From NCBI GenBank assembly GCA_963750945.1, contig CAVVSH010000015.1, positions 462,701-526,700 on the forward strand: a stretch of DNA of 64,000 nt, read 5' to 3'. The position numbers and the translations under genes are program-made. The stretch's first letter is position 1; each line of letters opens with the position of its first letter. This DNA is from an uncultured Actinomycetota bacterium. Its GTDB lineage: Bacteria > Actinomycetota > UBA4738 > HRBIN12. Positions 53,240 to 61,177 of the stretch are shown piece by piece. A model generated the notes under the pieces. It saw only the letters and a list, made by a program, of their open reading frames with translations. It was not told the DNA's origin and did no database searches.

Positions 53240-54724
53240 ATGGAGCACATCACCAAGCGGTTCCCCGGCGTGGTGGCCAACGACGACGTCTCGCTCGAGC
53301 TGCGCCCCGGCGAGGTCCACGCGCTGATCGGGGAGAACGGCGCCGGGAAGTCCACGCTGATGCGGATCCTCTACGGCATGTACCCCGCGAGCGAGGGCCG
53401 GATCTTGCTGGGAGGGGACGAGGTCTCGATCACGTCCCCCCGCGTCGCGCTCCAGCATGGGATCGGGATGGTCCACCAACATTTCGTCCTGGTCGACCCG
53501 TTCACGGTCACGGAGAACGTGATCCTCGGTGACGAGGGCTCGGCGATCCTCGACATGGACACTGCGCACGAGAAGGTCACCGAGCTCGCGCAGACCTACG
53601 GGTTCCAGGTTCGCCCCAGCGCGTTGATCGAGGATCTGTCCGTCGGGGAAGAACAGCGGGTGGAGATCCTCAAGGCGCTCTACCGGGGGGTCGAGGTTCT
53701 CATCCTCGACGAGCCAACCGCGGTCCTGACGCCGCTAGAGGCGAAGGACCTCTTCTCGAACCTCCGCCGCCTGCGGGATGACGGGAAGGCGATCGTCTTC
53801 ATCAGCCACAAGTTGGACGAGGTGCTGGCCATCGCGGACCGGATCACCGTCCTTCGTCGAGGCAAGGTCGTGGGTGAGACGACCCCGGCGGAAGCGTCCA
53901 AGGCCAAGCTCGCCGAGATGATGGTCGGACGCCCCGTGCTGTTCCGTCTCGAGAAGCCCGACGTGGAGATCGGCGAGCCGATCCTGGAGGTTGACGGTCT
54001 CTTGGGCGAAGGCAAGCTCAACGGGATCGGATTCCAGGTGCGGGCTCGCGAGATCCTCGGCGTGGCCGGAGTGGAGGGAAACGGACAGAAGGAGCTCGCC
54101 GAGGCTCTGATCGGTCTCAGGAAGCCCGCGGCCGGCACGGTCCGACTGGCAGGGACGACCATCACCGGCTGGCCTGTAGCCGATATCCGCAACGCTGGCG
54201 TGGCCTACATCCCCGAGGACCGTCACGAACAAGGACTCGTCCTCTCCATGACCCTGTGGGAGAACGCAGTCCTGGGACGCGAAGACGACCATCCATTCTC
54301 GGGGAGGACCGGATTCCTGTTCATCGAGCGGATCAAGGAGATGGCCAGGCGACTCGTGAAGTTGTTCGATGTCCGAACCCGATCGATCAACGTCGCCGCG
54401 AGCACCCTGTCGGGTGGGAACCAACAGAAGCTCGTGCTCGCTCGGGAGCTGGACACGAGCCCCAAGCTGCTCATCGCATCGCAGCCGACCCGCGGACTCG
54501 ACGTCGGAGCCATCGAATTCGTTTGGCGACAGATCCTGGACCAGAAGAAGGAGGGACGTGGTGTCCTGCTGATCTCCGCCGAGCTCGACGAGATCTATGC
54601 CCTCTCGGATCGGATCGTGACGATCTACGAAGGGCGGATCACCGGCGAGTACGCGCCGGATGCGCTTCCTGAGGAGATCGGCGCCGGGATGCTCGGCGCC
54701 GGCGACACCGCCGAGGCCAGCTGA
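53240..54724 (+). CDS. ABC transporter ATP-binding protein (duplicated ATPase, sugar/nucleoside type)
   Basis: Two Walker A/LSGGQ/Walker B sets (GENGAGKST..; LSGGNQQK). Start moved to the ATG at 53240, after the hairpin. Confidence 0.85.
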   Translation: MEHITKRFPGVVANDDVSLELRPGEVHALIGENGAGKSTLMRILYGMYPASEGRILLGGDEVSITSPRVALQHGIGMVHQHFVLVDPFTVTENVILGDEGSAILDMDTAHEKVTELAQTYGFQVRPSALIEDLSVGEEQRVEILKALYRGVEVLILDEPTAVLTPLEAKDLFSNLRRLRDDGKAIVFISHKLDEVLAIADRITVLRRGKVVGETTPAEASKAKLAEMMVGRPVLFRLEKPDVEIGEPILEVDGLLGEGKLNGIGFQVRAREILGVAGVEGNGQKELAEALIGLRKPAAGTVRLAGTTITGWPVADIRNAGVAYIPEDRHEQGLVLSMTLWENAVLGREDDHPFSGRTGFLFIERIKEMARRLVKLFDVRTRSINVAASTLSGGNQQKLVLARELDTSPKLLIASQPTRGLDVGAIEFVWRQILDQKKEGRGVLLISAELDEIYALSDRIVTIYEGRITGEYAPDALPEEIGAGMLGAGDTAEAS

Positions 54725-55908
54725 TGTCGACGACAGACGCGACGCTGCCCGCTCCTCGCGCGCTGCCGCCATGGCTCGAGTCGGCCGTGGGCCAGGGCCT
54801 CGCGCTGCTCGCCGCGTTCGCGATCGCGATCGGCGCGGGCTCGCTGATCATCATCCTGTACGGCGAGAACCCACTCACCGTGTACAGCGCGATGCTCAGC
54901 TTCGCCTTCAAGGACGTGACGAGCATCGGGACCGTGCTCTCGATCGCGACACCGCTCATCTTCGCCGCGCTCGCGGTGTCGGTCTGCTTCAAAGGCGGAT
55001 TGTTCAACATCGGGGTGGAAGGTCAGTTCCTGGTCGCCATGGTCACCGCGTCGTGGGCGGCACTCGCCTTCGACTTCCTGCCGGGTCTGCTCCATCTCAC
55101 CGCGGTGCTCGTCTTCGCGTGCCTGGGAGGCATGGTCTACGCGGCCGTCCCGGGAGTCCTCAAGGTAACGACCGGGGCACACGAGGTCGTGACGACGATC
55201 ATGATGAACGGCATCGCCATCAGCATCGTGGCGTACGCGCTCAACGGCCCTCTGAGGTTCACGAAGGCTCCGCCCGGTCAGAACGTCGACCTACGAACGG
55301 ACATCTTCGAGCCCAGCGCCCTCGTACCGGACCTCGGGCACCTGTTCGGTGTCGGCAACTCTGCGAACCTGTCCTGGCTGTTCCCCATCGCGATCGTCGC
55401 CAGCGCGATCGTCTGGTTCCTGTTCCGGCGGATGCGCCTGGGCTACCAGGCCCGCGTGGTCGGATCCTCTGTAGGATCCGCCCGCGCGGGCGGGATCGCG
55501 ATCGGCGGCGTGCAGATCAAGCTGTTTCTGATCTCCGGTGCGCTCGCGGGGCTGACCGGGATGCAGCAGGTGCTGGTTGAACGGGGCGCGCTCGTCCAGA
55601 ACTACGAGGCGCAGCTCGGCTTCACGGGGATCGCCGTGGCGTTCCTCGGTCAGAACAACCCGATCGGGATCGTCTTCGCCGCGGTCCTCTGGGCGATCCT
55701 CTCCCGAGGGGAGACCGCGCTGCAGCTCGAAACCGACCTGCCGAGAGAGTTCGTGATCATCCTGCAGGGGATCCTGATCTTCTCCGTGGTCGTCGTGCAT
55801 CAGGTCGCGAAGCGCAGGCTCGCAAGGCGCGAGCTCCAACGCGCCGGCGCTGAGGTCGGGCTCCGAGACACCGGGACACCAGAGGACGAGGCTCCGGGGG
55901 AGGGCTGA
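54724..55908 (+). CDS. ABC transporter permease (BMP/nucleoside system)
   Basis: Polytopic membrane protein. Start overlaps the upstream stop. Confidence 0.8.
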   Translation: MSTTDATLPAPRALPPWLESAVGQGLALLAAFAIAIGAGSLIIILYGENPLTVYSAMLSFAFKDVTSIGTVLSIATPLIFAALAVSVCFKGGLFNIGVEGQFLVAMVTASWAALAFDFLPGLLHLTAVLVFACLGGMVYAAVPGVLKVTTGAHEVVTTIMMNGIAISIVAYALNGPLRFTKAPPGQNVDLRTDIFEPSALVPDLGHLFGVGNSANLSWLFPIAIVASAIVWFLFRRMRLGYQARVVGSSVGSARAGGIAIGGVQIKLFLISGALAGLTGMQQVLVERGALVQNYEAQLGFTGIAVAFLGQNNPIGIVFAAVLWAILSRGETALQLETDLPREFVIILQGILIFSVVVVHQVAKRRLARRELQRAGAEVGLRDTGTPEDEAPGEG

Positions 55909-56888
55909 TGGACCTCACCGACATCGGTGCCGCGATCCGGATCGCATTCACCTACTTCACGATCCTGTATCTCACGGGCCTGGGCGGACTGTTCAGCGAG
56001 CGCTCCGGGATCGTGAATATCGGGCTCGAGGGGCTCATGGTGATCGGGACCGTAACCGGCGCAGCAGGTGCGGCGATCTTCGCCGGTCCCGCCCCGGAAG
56101 GGTTGGGACTGGGGGCTGGAGGCGTGGTGCTCGGATTGCTGTTCGGCGCGCTCTGTGGCGCGCTCTTCGCGTCGGTCCACGCCGTCGCCACGATCAACTT
56201 CCGGGTCGATCACATCGTCTCCGGCGTCGTGATCAACCTCATGGCGATCGGGCTTGCGAGGTTCCTCTCGTTCGTGTTCTTCGAGCAGGCGACCCAATCG
56301 GATCCGGGCGGTCCGCATCTGTCACGGCTCGACATCCCGGGGCTTTCGGACATCCCGTGGGGACTGGGGAATGCCTTCCAGAATCTCTCGCCGGTCGTGC
56401 TCTTCGCTGCCGTGCTCGTCTTCCCCGTGACGTTCGCGCTCTACCGCACCCGATGGGGTCTCCGTCTCCGGTCCGCCGGCGAGAACCCGGAGGCCACGCG
56501 ATCCCTCGGGGTCGCCGTGGCGCCGCTCCAGTGGCAGGGCGTCTTGCTCTCCGGCGCACTGGCCGGCATGTCAGGCGCGTTCCTCGCGGTGGAGGTTGTC
56601 TTCAACTGGCGGGAAGGGCAGACACTGGGGCTCGGCTTCATCGCCCTCGCTGCTCTGATCCTGTCGAACTGGGATCCCCGACGGCTGTTGGTGGTCGCGT
56701 TCCTCTTCGGGTTCGCGCAGGCGATCCCGCTTCGGCTGGACGACGCGCCGTTGATCCGCCTGCTGCCGCCGCAGTTCATCAACATGATCCCCTACGTCGT
56801 GACCATCGTGGCGATCGCGGGATTCGTGGCGAAGGTACGTCCACCGGCTGCGGCGGGACGAGCGTACGAGGGCGCGGGCGGCACTTAG
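55908..56888 (+). CDS. ABC transporter permease (BMP/nucleoside system)
   Basis: Polytopic membrane protein. Start overlaps the upstream stop. Confidence 0.8.
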   Translation: MDLTDIGAAIRIAFTYFTILYLTGLGGLFSERSGIVNIGLEGLMVIGTVTGAAGAAIFAGPAPEGLGLGAGGVVLGLLFGALCGALFASVHAVATINFRVDHIVSGVVINLMAIGLARFLSFVFFEQATQSDPGGPHLSRLDIPGLSDIPWGLGNAFQNLSPVVLFAAVLVFPVTFALYRTRWGLRLRSAGENPEATRSLGVAVAPLQWQGVLLSGALAGMSGAFLAVEVVFNWREGQTLGLGFIALAALILSNWDPRRLLVVAFLFGFAQAIPLRLDDAPLIRLLPPQFINMIPYVVTIVAIAGFVAKVRPPAAAGRAYEGAGGT

Positions 56889-56901
56889 CCGACCGGCGGC
56901 T

Positions 56902-57522
56902 CTACGTGCCGTGGAGCCGATCGCCGAAGTCTCCGAGCCCCGGCAGGATGAAGCCGACGTCGTTCAACTCCCGGTCGAGCGCGCCGGCGACGATCGGCAC
57001 GTCGGGATGATCGGCTTCGAGCTTCGCGACGCCTTCGGGCGCCGCCACGATGCACACGAACGAGATCGACGTCGGCGTGGCATGCGCCTTGACGTGCGCG
57101 ATCGCGGCGCTCCCGGACCCGCCGGTCGCAAGCATCGGGTCGAGCACGAGGGCTCGCCTCCCGCTCATCGGGGGAAGCTTCGCGTAGTAGTCGCGGGGTT
57201 CCAGCGTCTCCTCGTCCCGCTCGAGGCCCAGATAGCCGACCACGGTATCGGGGTAGAGGTCCGTGACCGCGTCGAGCAACCCGAGTCCGGCCCGAAGGAC
57301 GGGGATCGCCACCAACGGCTCCGCGAGCCGAGTGGCCTTCGTCTCCTCCATCGGCGTGTCGATGGTGACGTGCTCGCTGAGGAGATCACGGGTGGCCTCG
57401 ATCACGAGCAGCCATCCCAGTCGACGAGTGAGGGTTCGGAACTCGGCCGGGTTCGTCCCTCGCTCTCGAAGCCGGGATAGGAGGTCGTGGGCGAGCGGAT
57501 GGTCGAGCACCGTGATCGACAT
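56902..57522 (-). CDS. upp: uracil phosphoribosyltransferase
   Basis: VLDPMLATGGS PRPP-binding motif. Strong alignment to E. coli Upp over its whole length. Confidence 0.95.
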   Translation of the reverse strand: MSITVLDHPLAHDLLSRLRERGTNPAEFRTLTRRLGWLLVIEATRDLLSEHVTIDTPMEETKATRLAEPLVAIPVLRAGLGLLDAVTDLYPDTVVGYLGLERDEETLEPRDYYAKLPPMSGRRALVLDPMLATGGSGSAAIAHVKAHATPTSISFVCIVAAPEGVAKLEADHPDVPIVAGALDRELNDVGFILPGLGDFGDRLHGT

Positions 57523-57600
57523 GGAGCGAATCCTAGTCCTGCGGACGGGAGCGTGAGCCTGTTGACACCGGCGCCGCTCGGCGGTCACGATGGGCGCCGC

Positions 57601-57654
57601 ATGCAGCGATTCTGTGGTGACTGGTTCTTCTACTTCGGGCGTAGCCTGGCGTAG
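57601..57654 (+). CDS. candidate aromatic-amino-acid leader peptide (17 aa, MQRFCGDWFFYFGRSLA)
   Basis: Short ORF in the 5' leader of the DAHP synthase gene, with W-F-F-Y-F at codons 8-12. About 35 bp downstream of a TTGACA hexamer (57562-57567). Confidence 0.45.
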   Translation: MQRFCGDWFFYFGRSLA

Positions 57655-57679
57655 TCACCTGTCGCCGAGAGAGCACAGG

Positions 57680-57712
57680 GGCCCCGGGCGGAAGACCCGG
57701 GGCCGTTTCGTT
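57680..57712 (+). terminator. attenuator/terminator-like hairpin in the DAHP synthase leader
   Basis: ggccccggg cggaaga cccggggcc followed by gtttcgtt. A second copy of cccggggcc at 57713-57721 could form an alternative pairing. Confidence 0.5.
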
Positions 57713-57746
57713 CCCGGGGCCGTCCCGGCGCCGGAGGAGGTCGCGG

Positions 57747-58766
57747 ATGGTCGTCGTGATGAAGCAGGACGCGACGGAGGCGGACATCGAAGCCGTTTCC
57801 GAGCGGGTGCGTGGCGCCGGTGGTGAGGCGTTCGTCTCACGCGGCGCCGTGCACTCCATCGTCGGCCTCGTCGGCGACACGGATCGCTTCCAGGCGATCG
57901 ACTGGAAGCAGATGCACGGCGTCGATCACGTCATCCGGATCGGCAAGCCCTACAAGATGGTCGCGCGTGACCTCCATCCCGAGACGACCACGGTCAAGGT
58001 GGGGACGACCCCGGTGGGAAGGGGGACGTTCACGCTGATCGCCGGGCCGTGCGCGGTCGAGAACGCGGAACAGACGATGGCCGCCGTGGAGGCGTCGAAG
58101 GCGGCCGGCGCCACCATCGTGCGGGGCGATGTCTACAAGCCGAGAACATCGCCGTACTCGTTCCAGGGGCTCGGGGAAGAGGGTCTCGAGATCCTGAAGG
58201 ACGTCAGGCGACGGACCGGCCTGCCGTTCGTGGTGGAGGTCGTCGATCTGAACCAGGTCGAGCACGTCGCCGAGGTGGCCGACTGCATCAGGATCGGCAC
58301 GCGGAACGCGCAGAACTTCGAGCTCCTCAAGGAGGTCGGGCTGTCGAACAAGCCGGTGATGTTGAAACGCGGTCTCGCGATGACGATCGACGAATGGTTG
58401 CAAGCGGCCGAGTACGTCGCCCAACGAGGGAACTCGGAGATCATCCTGTGCGAACGAGGGATCCGCACGTTCGAGCCGGCGACGCGCAACACGCTCGATC
58501 TCGCGGGCATGGCGGTGGCCCAGTACGAATCCCATCTACCGGTCATCGTCGATCCTTCGCACGCGGTGGGGAAACGGCACCTCGTGGCCCCGATGGCGAA
58601 GGCGGCCGTCGCCGCCGGGGCGGACGGGGTGATGGTGGACGTCCACCCGAATCCGGAGGAGGCGATGGTGGACGGGGCCCAGGCGCTCCTGCCCCACGAG
58701 GTGGTGGAGCTCGGCGAGCAATTGGCGGCGATCGCGGCGGCCGTTGGCCGACCCATGAACCGCTAG
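57747..58766 (+). CDS. 3-deoxy-7-phosphoheptulonate (DAHP) synthase, class I-beta, with N-terminal ACT-like regulatory domain
   Basis: KPRTSPYSFQGLGEEGL, GTRNAQNFELLKEVG and LCERGIRTFE match Bacillus/Thermotoga-type DAHPS/KDO8PS. GGAGGAGG RBS. Confidence 0.9.
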   Translation: MVVVMKQDATEADIEAVSERVRGAGGEAFVSRGAVHSIVGLVGDTDRFQAIDWKQMHGVDHVIRIGKPYKMVARDLHPETTTVKVGTTPVGRGTFTLIAGPCAVENAEQTMAAVEASKAAGATIVRGDVYKPRTSPYSFQGLGEEGLEILKDVRRRTGLPFVVEVVDLNQVEHVAEVADCIRIGTRNAQNFELLKEVGLSNKPVMLKRGLAMTIDEWLQAAEYVAQRGNSEIILCERGIRTFEPATRNTLDLAGMAVAQYESHLPVIVDPSHAVGKRHLVAPMAKAAVAAGADGVMVDVHPNPEEAMVDGAQALLPHEVVELGEQLAAIAAAVGRPMNR

Positions 58767-58833
58767 GGAGCGTCCGCTCCGGTCACGAGGCGGGGAGCCG
58801 GGCGGGGATCGCCGCGTCGCCGGCTCGCCGACC

Positions 58834-59109
58834 TCAGTAGCGCTTCCGACTTGCCGCAAGGGCCGCACTCGCCGCGTCGAGCATGACCCCCAGGCCCACC
58901 GACGTCACGACGACCACCAGCCCCGCGTCCGCGCTCTTCGCGATCGTGAATGCCATGGTCGCGAACGGAAGGAAGATGAGGCCCAGGAGCGGGAAGATCC
59001 ACGTCGTGAAGACCGTTTCGAACGCGCCGGTCCCGAGCCAGATCACGAGGACGATGATCCTGCCGAGCACCGCGAAGCTCGATCCGAGCACTCCGTCTCC
59101 CTCCCTCAT
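58834..59109 (-). CDS. small membrane protein (91 aa), unknown
   Basis: Three predicted TM segments. Internal ATG chosen; the upstream extension is Arg/Ala-rich. Confidence 0.4.
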   Translation of the reverse strand: MREGDGVLGSSFAVLGRIIVLVIWLGTGAFETVFTTWIFPLLGLIFLPFATMAFTIAKSADAGLVVVVTSVGLGVMLDAASAALAASRKRY

Positions 59110-59180
59110 CGATGCGCTTTGGTGTTCCGAACCGCCGGCGAACGCGGCGGTCCCGCCGGCGTGACACCCGAGAGCGCCGT

Positions 59181-59963
59181 TCAGCCGGACACAGACACGT
59201 TCGGCGTCAGCTCCACTATGTCGCACTTCCCGCGCCACCGAGCGAGCGACTCGTCGGGCGGCCCGACCCGGCTTCGGCGCCGGTCCACGAGCATCTTCGC
59301 GGCCGTCTCCCACTCCGGTCCCTCCAGCAGACGCTGCGCAGCCGTGAACTCCTGCAGTGAGGTATCGCGGAGTTTCCGCCGGGTCACCACCACGAGCTCC
59401 TGCGCGTCCGGGACGCCCGGCACGGTTTGCTCATGCGCCTCCGGATCGTGGCAGGAAAGGAGGTAGATCTTCCCGTCCTTGAACGCGAACCACACCGGCG
59501 CCATCCGCTTGTCGCCGTTCACACGCGTCCCGACCCAGATGACGTCGGACTTCCGCAGGCCTTCCTCGGTCTCCTTCGGGAGCTTCAGCGCGGCCGCTTG
59601 CACGTACACGGGGAACTCGATCTCCCCGATGATCTCGCCTTCGAGGATGAACGACGCGACGTACGTGCCCGTTTCTTCGAGCACCGCGTCGTCGATGCGG
59701 TCGAGCTCGACCGTGAGGTCCATCGCGCCCTTCATCCGCCGCACCTGCGGGCCCCAGCGGTAGAGCGTGCGACCGGACGGGCCCACCAACCTGATCTCCT
59801 CGGAGACGAAACCGGTCGGCACCTTCCACGCTCTGAAGATCACGAACGCCAGCGCGGGACCGGGCTGACCGACGAGGTAGATGCCGTCAGGCGCCGTCTC
59901 CTGATACGCGTCCCAGACCCGCTCGTCGACGACGGCCGCCGAGATCAGCTCACCGATGGTCAT
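59181..59963 (-). CDS. hypothetical protein with PPOX-like C-terminal half
   Basis: 260 aa. DVIWVGTRVNGDKRMAPVWFAFKDGKIYLLS resembles FMN-binding split-barrel proteins. Confidence 0.4.
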   Translation of the reverse strand: MTIGELISAAVVDERVWDAYQETAPDGIYLVGQPGPALAFVIFRAWKVPTGFVSEEIRLVGPSGRTLYRWGPQVRRMKGAMDLTVELDRIDDAVLEETGTYVASFILEGEIIGEIEFPVYVQAAALKLPKETEEGLRKSDVIWVGTRVNGDKRMAPVWFAFKDGKIYLLSCHDPEAHEQTVPGVPDAQELVVVTRRKLRDTSLQEFTAAQRLLEGPEWETAAKMLVDRRRSRVGPPDESLARWRGKCDIVELTPNVSVSG

Positions 59964-60007
59964 CGTCGGGCGATGATAGCCGACGGCTCGAGGACTCCCG
60001 CGCGCCC

Positions 60008-61177
60008 TTAGACGGTGCGCGCGAGCCAGAGGCGAGGCTCATCCAGCTCCGGGAGCGACGGCATCGCGTCCGCCGATTCCCACATCCGAGCGAGCGTGAG
60101 CTCGTCGGTCTGCTCCACGACGACCTCGCAGAACGCCCGCCCGCGTCGGTACTGCTCGCGCTTCATGTCGACGCCGAGCAAGCGTTCGAACACGGGGTCG
60201 CCGTGCTCGCCTTCGCGGTACCGCTTCATCGCCTCTTCGATCCGGGGGTAGGTACCGAGCAGCTCCGCACCCAGCGCCTGCATCACGTGATCGCCGTAGC
60301 CCTCCGCGGCCGCCATGAACGCCTGGATCCTCCCGAGCTTCAAGCGCTGCTCGTCGTCGAGGTCCGCCCAGAAGAGGCCCTGTTCGGACTCGGCGAGCTG
60401 CTGGAGTGCCTGGGGATCCGTGGGATCGAGTGTGGCGAATCGGCTCTGCATGGCTTCGACGTCGAGCTTGAGCGTCGAGAGGTAGTCGTCGAGGAGATCC
60501 TGGAAGCGATCGCGAGCCCATCCCTGGGCGAACTCGAAACGATGGGTCACCTCGTGGAGGGCGACGAGCGTTCGGAACTCCCTGGGATCGAGCGACCAGT
60601 CGCGCTCGAGCGCCACGAGGTTGGGGACGACGAACAGGAGCTGGCCGGGTCCGGACCTCGGCAGCGCGATGTCGTATTGGCCCAGCACCCGCTGGGCCAG
60701 CATCCCGAGGACCTGACCCACCTGCGTGCCGAGCAGGAGCGGGGAGAGCTGACGCAAGAACCCCGAGAGCTGCGCCATCTCCGGAGGGAGCTGATCCCCG
60801 GCGCTGCGCTCGATCGCATCCGTCAGGCGCCTCGCCGCCGGTTCGAGGAGGTTCTTCAAGCTCTCCGCGTTGGCGTTCACCCAGCCGGCGCGGCGGACGG
60901 CGTGCACCTGCGCGACGTCTCTCGGCGCCGCCATCCCGGTGAATCTCCCCACGTGGAGCTCCGCGACGCGGACGGCCTCCTCCAGCATCCGGAGGTCGCC
61001 CTCGGAGGGCTCCAGGTCCGGTCCGGCCTCGACCGCGTTCGCGACGCCGACCTGACGGGCGAGCTCCCAGTTCACCGGACCACTCGAGGCGGACATCACG
61101 CGTTGCAGCTCGCGGAACAAGGGAGCGTCCTTGAACGCCTCGGGATCACCTGGGTCGAAGCCGAACCCTCCACTCAC
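60008..61177 (-). CDS. zinc-dependent metalloprotease (HEXXH; DUF2342-like)
   Basis: LVALHEVTHRFEF contains an HExxH motif. Mostly helical, 389 aa. Confidence 0.55.
   Translation of the reverse strand: MSGGFGFDPGDPEAFKDAPLFRELQRVMSASSGPVNWELARQVGVANAVEAGPDLEPSEGDLRMLEEAVRVAELHVGRFTGMAAPRDVAQVHAVRRAGWVNANAESLKNLLEPAARRLTDAIERSAGDQLPPEMAQLSGFLRQLSPLLLGTQVGQVLGMLAQRVLGQYDIALPRSGPGQLLFVVPNLVALERDWSLDPREFRTLVALHEVTHRFEFAQGWARDRFQDLLDDYLSTLKLDVEAMQSRFATLDPTDPQALQQLAESEQGLFWADLDDEQRLKLGRIQAFMAAAEGYGDHVMQALGAELLGTYPRIEEAMKRYREGEHGDPVFERLLGVDMKREQYRRGRAFCEVVVEQTDELTLARMWESADAMPSLPELDEPRLWLARTV

Follow-up and report, generated by a model that had tools for sequence, protein, structure and literature searches.

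The 64,000-nucleotide stretch analyzed here (the window) belongs to contig CAVVSH010000015.1 of an uncultured Actinomycetota bacterium and carries, at positions 57747..58766 of the + strand, a gene for DAHP (3-deoxy-7-phosphoheptulonate) synthase. Between this gene and its upstream neighbor lie a 17-codon open reading frame (ORF) rich in aromatic codons and a GC-rich hairpin, which raises the question of whether the two form a regulatory unit and, if so, how such a unit acts on the gene. The reading that we favor, with a probability of about 0.85, is that of a ribosome-mediated (leader-peptide) transcription attenuator controlling the DAHP synthase gene. Sequence elements, their conservation, mutually exclusive helices and an in silico dependence on ribosome position were observed; from these we infer the start of transcription, actual termination and a response to amino-acid supply. 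The reading also fits the physiology, as the regulated gene encodes the first committed enzyme of the aromatic pathway.

The leader ORF, MQRFCGDWFFYFGRSLA, comprises 17 codons and a TAG stop codon on the + strand at 57601-57654, with the ATG at 57601 and the TAG at 57652-57654. Six of its 17 codons are aromatic and five of these are consecutive, with the run W8-F12 (TGG TTC TTC TAC TTC) located at 57622..57636 (+) and an isolated Phe codon (TTC) at 57610-57612 (+). Across all six frames of the 64-kb window (G+C content 68.5%), no run of at least four aromatic residues occurs other than WFFYF; dinucleotide-preserving shuffling gives an expectation per window of 0.07 for runs of at least four and 0.03 for runs of at least five. 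A 17-codon ORF with five consecutive aromatic codons had been described in an earlier reading of the window's sequence (the original prediction) and is present as described, with a few coordinates refined. In an alignment of 18 sequences (A1), consisting of the window and its relatives, the start, frame and stop of the leader are kept throughout. The gaps within the ORF are 3, 3 and 12 nt long, all multiples of 3, whereas those on the 3' side of the stop codon are of arbitrary lengths (1, 2, 3 and 4 nt), indicating that the leader ORF is under selection at the level of translation.

Homologous DNA was drawn from genomes (L001-L080), metagenomes (L081-L160) and the loci of nine individual proteins (L161-L177). 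Close homologues of the DAHP synthase number in the thousands in metagenomes, the best 120 being 79-91% identical. An aromatic-rich short ORF followed by the hairpin was found at every locus with a 78-91% identical enzyme, except L176, and this unit is represented by 18 distinct sequences of uncultured Actinomycetota including the window, usually with the same upp / DAHP synthase synteny. Examples of the leaders of relatives are MQLFFGDWFFYFGPCPA, MRWFFGDGFTYFGRRPG, MQSSVGFRFTYFGRDPG and MQGSSGYWFAYFGRDPG, as well as MERFFAYWFTYFGPDPG, MQRNLCSFGGSWFFYAGERPA and MRRTYRSWCSFVGPDPA. The positions and identities of the aromatic residues vary freely between them; aromatic residues nevertheless make up 93 of about 310 positions in the 18 leaders (∼30%), with 3-7 aromatic codons in each leader of 16-21 codons. 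Phe and Tyr codons occur in all 18 clade leaders and Trp codons in 14, and the distance from the stop codon to the core of the 5' arm of the terminator is 25-30 nt.

The distant DAHP synthases (46-60% identity) that form the bulk of the matches in the genome and metagenome scans have no leader. In six Nocardiopsis genomes, with enzymes 57-59% identical, the leader is longer (MQRNFWRFYGYRP...) and precedes a strong terminator whose U-tract is good. The wish of the original prediction for conservation of the Trp/Phe/Tyr-rich micro-ORF upstream of orthologues is therefore answered by 18 clade sequences and six Nocardiopsis loci. A covariance model (R1) was built from the 18 sequences and run over the window and 170 loci. 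Its matches score 80-118 bits in the training set, 41 bits at L176 and 19-28 bits at the six Nocardiopsis loci, which were absent from the training set and were matched in the right place and on the right strand. R1 did not find the element in the other roughly 145 DAHP synthase loci of other lineages, nor a second copy in the window, and no leader was seen at the Jiangellaceae, Amycolatopsis, Acidimicrobiia or non-actinobacterial loci. The Nocardiopsis leaders (L006-L008, L010, L011 and L013) lie about 130-210 nt 5' of the DAHP synthase ATG and use TTT and TAT at most Phe/Tyr positions despite a G+C content of 62-68%; the window clade uses TTC and TAC only. At L176 (positions 1342-1468, contig_24973), a -10 hexamer CATCAT stands almost directly before GGCCCCGCGTAGTCGCC, with the inner hairpin, terminator and DAHP synthase gene all retained.

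The hairpin itself, GGCCCCGGG / CGGAAGA / CCCGGGGCC, occupies 57680..57704 (+) and is formed by 9 G-C pairs with a predicted energy of -21.9 kcal/mol. Its arms, at 57680-57688 (GGCCCCGGG) and 57696-57704 (CCCGGGGCC), enclose a 7-nt loop, and the hairpin is followed by the U-rich tail GTTTCGTT at 57705..57712 (+). The 9-bp GC stem-loop with a GTTTCGTT tail of the original prediction is thus in place at 57680-57712. The hairpin sits 42 nt 5' of the DAHP synthase gene and is the only terminator-like site in a scan of 57000-59200, and the motif CCCCGGG-N3-12-CCCGGGG occurs once in the 64-kb window against 0.02 expected. The terminator helix is paired in 100% of cells across the 18 sequences, with one pair present as AU in 10, GC in 7 and GU in 1. 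The hairpin and its pyrimidine/U-rich tail are the best-conserved part of the element, the tails of the relatives being likewise pyrimidine-rich. It cannot be the terminator of upp (uracil phosphoribosyltransferase, 56902-57522, - strand), because this upstream gene is divergently transcribed.

An attenuator of this kind has a second, mutually exclusive helix, and the original prediction had sought its partner in a second copy of CCCGGGGCC. That copy exists, at 57713..57721 (+), and is referred to below as segment 5. As the antiterminator partner it was rejected, since it lies 3' of both the terminator and the tail and is transcribed too late to decide termination; the alternative pairing is found instead upstream, at the end of the ORF. 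A CCUGU/ACAGG hairpin at 57659-57680 was also considered as the antiterminator on its own and makes up no more than the inner portion of a longer helix. This helix is formed between segment 2, its 5' strand at 57644..57662 (+), which consists of the final leader codons GCCUGG-CG, the stop codon UAG and then UCACCUGU, and segment 3, its 3' strand at 57675..57689 (+), which contains the whole 5' arm of the terminator. Segment 1, comprising the aromatic codons and ending in UUCGGGC (57611..57640, +), pairs with 57644-57670 in the untranslated or terminated state in minimum free energy (MFE) folds.

Support for these helices across the clade was obtained from A1. RNAalifold predicts a 1:2 helix of 15 pairs between the aromatic-codon region ending in UUCGGG and the end of the ORF, the stop codon and the next bases, with changes on both sides of the 49/65 pair in seven sequences and of the 34/79 and 45/70 pairs in one sequence each. 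The end of the leader ORF has the consensus gaCCCGGsG, which in the window reads GCCUGGCG. The outer helix of the antiterminator is 87.7% paired in the 18 sequences; shifting the partner by 1-3 columns lowers this to 28-56%. Two of its pairs covary (GC 11 / CG 2 / UG 1 and GC 9 / AU 4 / GU 1). An analogous antiterminator is found in Nocardiopsis, where UACCGGCCC...CUCC pairs with GGAG...GGGCCGGUA at -37 to -40 kcal/mol.

The dependence of these structures on the ribosome was examined by folding. When segment 1 was masked by a ribosome in full-length transcripts, the MFE fold switched to the antiterminator in many relatives; the exceptions were the window, L164, L167, L003, L177, L168 and L002. 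Because the full-length MFE failed to switch in the window and these six relatives, folds of the nascent transcript were adopted, in which the RNA was cut before the 3' arm of the terminator and a ribosome was placed on the middle aromatic codon. In this arrangement the end of the ORF captures 6-7 of the 7 core bases of the terminator arm in every one of the 18 sequences. The antiterminator has an energy of -20 to -36 kcal/mol in the 18 sequences, compared with -18 to -23 kcal/mol for the terminator; in the window the values are -22.7 and -21.9 kcal/mol, respectively, and all 7 core arm bases are paired. In a stall scan, the ribosomal A site was moved along each of the 18 leaders. The antiterminator forms with the A site as far along as about codon 11 and no longer does so from codon 12 to the stop codon. 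This permissive zone contains 75 of the 93 aromatic codons, and its end coincides with that of the aromatic run. Mutually exclusive terminator and antiterminator structures, which the original prediction had proposed to look for by folding, were therefore found in silico in 18/18 sequences and depend on the position of the ribosome, and the architecture of ribosome-mediated attenuation that it had put forward is supported by both the comparative and the folding evidence.

The start of the transcript was approached through conservation upstream of the leader. The window has a -35-like hexamer TTGACA at 57562..57567 (+), at the same position as in the relatives, and a -10-like hexamer CACGAT at 57586..57591 (+), recognized by its conservation in relatives and with A at position 2 and T at position 6; the two are separated by 18 nt, and a further 9 nt lead to the leader ATG. 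All 18 clade sequences have TTGACA, TTGCCA or TTGTCA at the -35 position. The layout common to the relatives is TTGMCA, 17-19 nt, CAYSAT and 7-10 nt (mostly 9) to the start codon, the -10 variants being CACGAT, CATCAT or CACCAT (GAGCAT in L170), followed by ATG or GTG. In Nocardiopsis the -10 is a canonical TATAGT, 7 nt 5' of the leader ATG. A scan with a strict sigma-70 consensus found no promoter, because the -10 is unlike TATAAT; the promoter was recognized only through its conservation in relatives. There is no Shine-Dalgarno sequence ahead of the leader ATG. The arrangement suggests a transcript whose 5' end coincides with the ATG or lies no more than about 3 nt from it, which would make the leader ORF leaderless or almost leaderless. 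Among Streptomyces attenuators leaderless leader ORFs are the rule, and a reannotation of Streptomyces lividans found all leader peptides of that organism to be leaderless by experiment.

With these elements the following course of events can be proposed. Transcription would start at or just before the ATG at 57601, and the 17-codon ORF would be translated as a leaderless or nearly leaderless message, with the leader RNA forming a chain of four segments that share the core CCCGGG, which is self-complementary. Segment 3 holds the 5' arm of the terminator, and segment 4 is its 3' arm together with the U-rich tail. With Phe-, Tyr- and Trp-tRNAs charged, the ribosome would reach the stop codon and cover segment 2, allowing segments 3 and 4 to form the terminator, so that most transcripts would end near 57705-57712. 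When an aromatic aminoacyl-tRNA is scarce, the ribosome would stall on W8-Y11, covering segment 1 and freeing segment 2. Segment 2 would then capture segment 3 as it emerges, no terminator would form, and RNA polymerase would read into the DAHP synthase gene. The enzyme gene is thus most likely turned up when aromatic amino acids are short. As to the earlier proposal that all three amino acids are sensed, codons for Phe, Tyr and Trp are indeed present, and the codon content suggests that the charging of all three tRNAs may be read.

Several observations weigh against an attenuator of this kind. The U-tract (GUUUCGUU) is imperfect, L164 has next to none, and the efficiency of intrinsic termination is uncertain for this reason. 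The full-length MFE fold of the window retains the terminator even with segment 1 masked, and the antiterminator is only about equally stable, so that the switch must be kinetic. Several relatives have the antiterminator as the MFE of the nascent transcript even without a ribosome. The helix cores CCCCGGG, CCCGGGG and CCCGG are invariant and self-complementary (the palindrome CCCGGG), with the result that the covariation rests on one or two pairs per helix in phylogenetically related sequences. Finally, L176 has lost the leader ORF and kept the hairpins, and may represent a constitutively attenuated or deregulated allele.

The first of these points is also the starting point for an explanation in which control is mainly translational or Rho-dependent, with translation of the leader altering access to the ribosome-binding site or exposing a Rho site, and in which the hairpin is no intrinsic terminator. 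The imperfect U-tract is compatible with such control, as is the scarcity of canonical intrinsic terminators in Actinobacteria, and so is segment 5. The simple attenuation model gives this segment no role, because it is transcribed after the termination point, and the conserved fifth CCCGG segment is the sole feature that the model leaves unexplained. Segment 5 can pair with segment 4 after the antiterminator has formed, and a 4:5 hairpin was seen in the antiterminated MFE folds of several relatives, whose counterparts of the segment read CCCCGGG or CCCGG. The window contains three copies of CCCGGGGCC, all clustered within a span of 42 nt; their number, taken alone, is not above chance. The accessibility of the Shine-Dalgarno sequence and AUG of the DAHP synthase gene (GGAGGAGG, 57733..57740, + strand) showed no consistent difference between the two states in 17 sequences (means of about 0.39 in the terminator and 0.33 in the antiterminator state), there is no anti-Shine-Dalgarno sequence, and it is the hairpin with its pyrimidine/U-rich tail that is most conserved. 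A translational switch is thus not supported, and control that is mainly translational or Rho-dependent is regarded as improbable; Rho-dependent termination may still take the place of intrinsic termination. A YCC(C)GG(G)-type segment, from a few to about 11 nt past the 3' arm of the terminator, is present in most relatives, including Nocardiopsis.

The leader might alternatively act through the sequence of its peptide, either by a TnaC-like arrest of the nascent chain that senses a free aromatic amino acid or by slowed termination, rather than through tRNA charging. The leader peptide starts with MQ in 11 of the 18 clade leaders and in all six Nocardiopsis leaders, L005 and the Nocardiopsis leaders sharing the longer start MQRN; Gly after the aromatic run recurs among the leaders, and the penultimate residue is Pro in 17 of 18. 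Such recurrence is what a peptide-specific mechanism would call for. The recurrent Gly (GGG) and Pro (CCG) codons can be traced, however, to the RNA, since the same bases form segments 1 and 2 (CGGG/CCCGG) and a constraint at the RNA level suffices to explain them. The exception to the penultimate Pro is the window itself, which has Leu, and the shuffling of aromatic positions between leaders fits the counting of codons and not a specific arrest motif. The MQ(RN) start is unaccounted for by the RNA helices; it may stem from shared ancestry or be needed for leaderless initiation. Overall, there is little to recommend action through the peptide over attenuation by ribosome stalling.

Marginally less probable again is that the small ORF is accidental and the hairpin a constitutive, non-sensing structure such as a terminator, an insulator, an RNA-stability element or a repeat. 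CCCGGG-rich hairpins arise easily at 68.5% G+C, the number of CCCGGGGCC copies is unremarkable, and L176 has the hairpins without the ORF. An accidental ORF would nevertheless have had to remain open throughout 18 + 6 diverged sequences, with every indel a multiple of 3, and to stay at ∼30% aromatic residues while the individual positions changed. The hairpin motif is moreover far commoner in the window than chance would give (once, against 0.02 expected), the divergent orientation of upp leaves no upstream gene for the hairpin to terminate, and the element is limited to the region upstream of this clade of DAHP synthases. A riboswitch, T-box or protein-binding (TRAP-like) attenuator to which the ORF is irrelevant has nothing beyond the presence of alternative hairpins in its favor and can be practically dismissed: Rfam has no match to the leader ORF region at E ≤ 10, GAG/UAG triplet repeats are not conserved (a GAGAGAG stretch in the window is absent from relatives), and the sequence-variable stretch of 25-30 nt between ORF and terminator is too short for an aptamer. 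The Rfam scan (57000-58200, E ≤ 10) returned chance-level hits only and no leader family (Phe_leader, Trp_leader, the Leu/His/Thr leaders or others), the sole match overlapping the leader being a chance hit to Methylosinus-1 (10.8 bits, 57685-57809).

Attenuation by a leader peptide at a DAHP synthase gene has a precedent in Corynebacterium, as the original prediction had stated correctly. In the aroR-aroF system of Corynebacterium glutamicum, a leader peptide containing Phe-Tyr-Phe is described upstream of the DAHP synthase gene, with read-through reported to increase under limitation of Phe (ribosome stalling) and not of Tyr (Neshat et al. 2014; Mentz et al. 2013). This is the closest known system, the comparison being one of F-Y-F content and function. 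The two systems share a short ORF with aromatic codons directly 5' of an actinobacterial DAHP synthase gene, the regulatory logic and the target step, and differ in that the leader of the window has six aromatic codons including Trp where aroR has F-Y-F. The present family is furthermore found in uncultured Actinomycetota and Nocardiopsis, and its enzyme is of class I-beta with a ferredoxin-like domain. The AroF protein of C. glutamicum belongs to a different class of DAHP synthase.

In its layout the element resembles trpL and pheL of Escherichia coli (the Yanofsky model), with four segments that pair as 1:2, 2:3 and 3:4, regulatory codons in segment 1, a stop codon adjoining segment 2 and a kinetic antiterminator. 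Unlike these, it has no sequence or Rfam relationship to them, its segment 2 takes in the final codons along with the stop, its ORF is probably leaderless, it mixes Phe, Tyr and Trp codons in one leader, and its target is an enzyme of the common pathway and not of a terminal branch. The leaderless leaders of Streptomyces, such as S. lividans trpL1 (MFAHSTRNWWWTAHPAAH) upstream of trpE, are similar in having the ORF at the transcription start, followed by hairpins and a U-rich stretch, and the spacing between promoter and ATG in the window fits this arrangement; the regulated gene and the amino-acid specificity differ. No DAHP synthase attenuator is described in the 2005 comparative survey of Actinobacteria, the 2010 survey of premature terminators or the S. 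lividans reannotation, and a search of the openly readable literature found no earlier description of one outside Corynebacterium.

The element is therefore an unannotated example of a familiar class of regulator, for which the literature offers a direct precedent at the same pathway step; the mechanism is an ordinary, classical one and the finding changes no concept. It does place a regulatory feature, missed by gene callers and by Rfam, at the entry enzyme of the shikimate pathway, in a lineage that is abundant and mostly uncultured and whose close DAHP synthase homologues number in the thousands in soil and sediment metagenomes. It further indicates that aroR-type attenuation of DAHP synthase is not peculiar to Corynebacterium. 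At roughly 120 nt, the element is a compact natural sensor that may report the charging of Phe, Tyr and Trp tRNAs together and could serve high-G+C hosts. A more far-reaching version, which we put forward tentatively and hold to be less probable than its opposite, is that it represents an uncatalogued and fairly old family in which one leaderless ORF integrates the charging of three aromatic tRNAs and the fifth segment adds an extra state (a 4:5 lock or a second checkpoint). The MQRN... start that L005 has in common with the Nocardiopsis leaders suggests a single origin of the family in distant Actinomycetota.

The regulated gene encodes a class I-beta DAHP synthase with an N-terminal ferredoxin-like regulatory domain (PF00793 and PF18152, NF006421, TIGR01361) that aligns from end to end with the Thermotoga maritima enzyme (1RZM/3PG9). 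The neighborhood is conserved between the window (54724-61177) and L161-L177, with ABC-transporter permeases (BPD_transp_2), upp on the - strand and the leader with the DAHP synthase gene; the exception is L169, where an FAD-binding oxidoreductase lies upstream. Further members of the conserved synteny in the window are a protein of 258-262 amino acids with no Pfam match (59181-59963, -) and a Zincin_2 protein (60008-61177, -), and several relatives have a convergent MarR-family gene. The coding strand just 3' of the DAHP synthase gene is ambiguous, with candidate ORFs at 58834-59313 (-) and 58883-59164 (+). The former is an ORF of 159 amino acids with a hydrophobic C-terminal half and no Pfam hit, and in L161 and L162 the corresponding position was called as a + strand gene of 156 amino acids.

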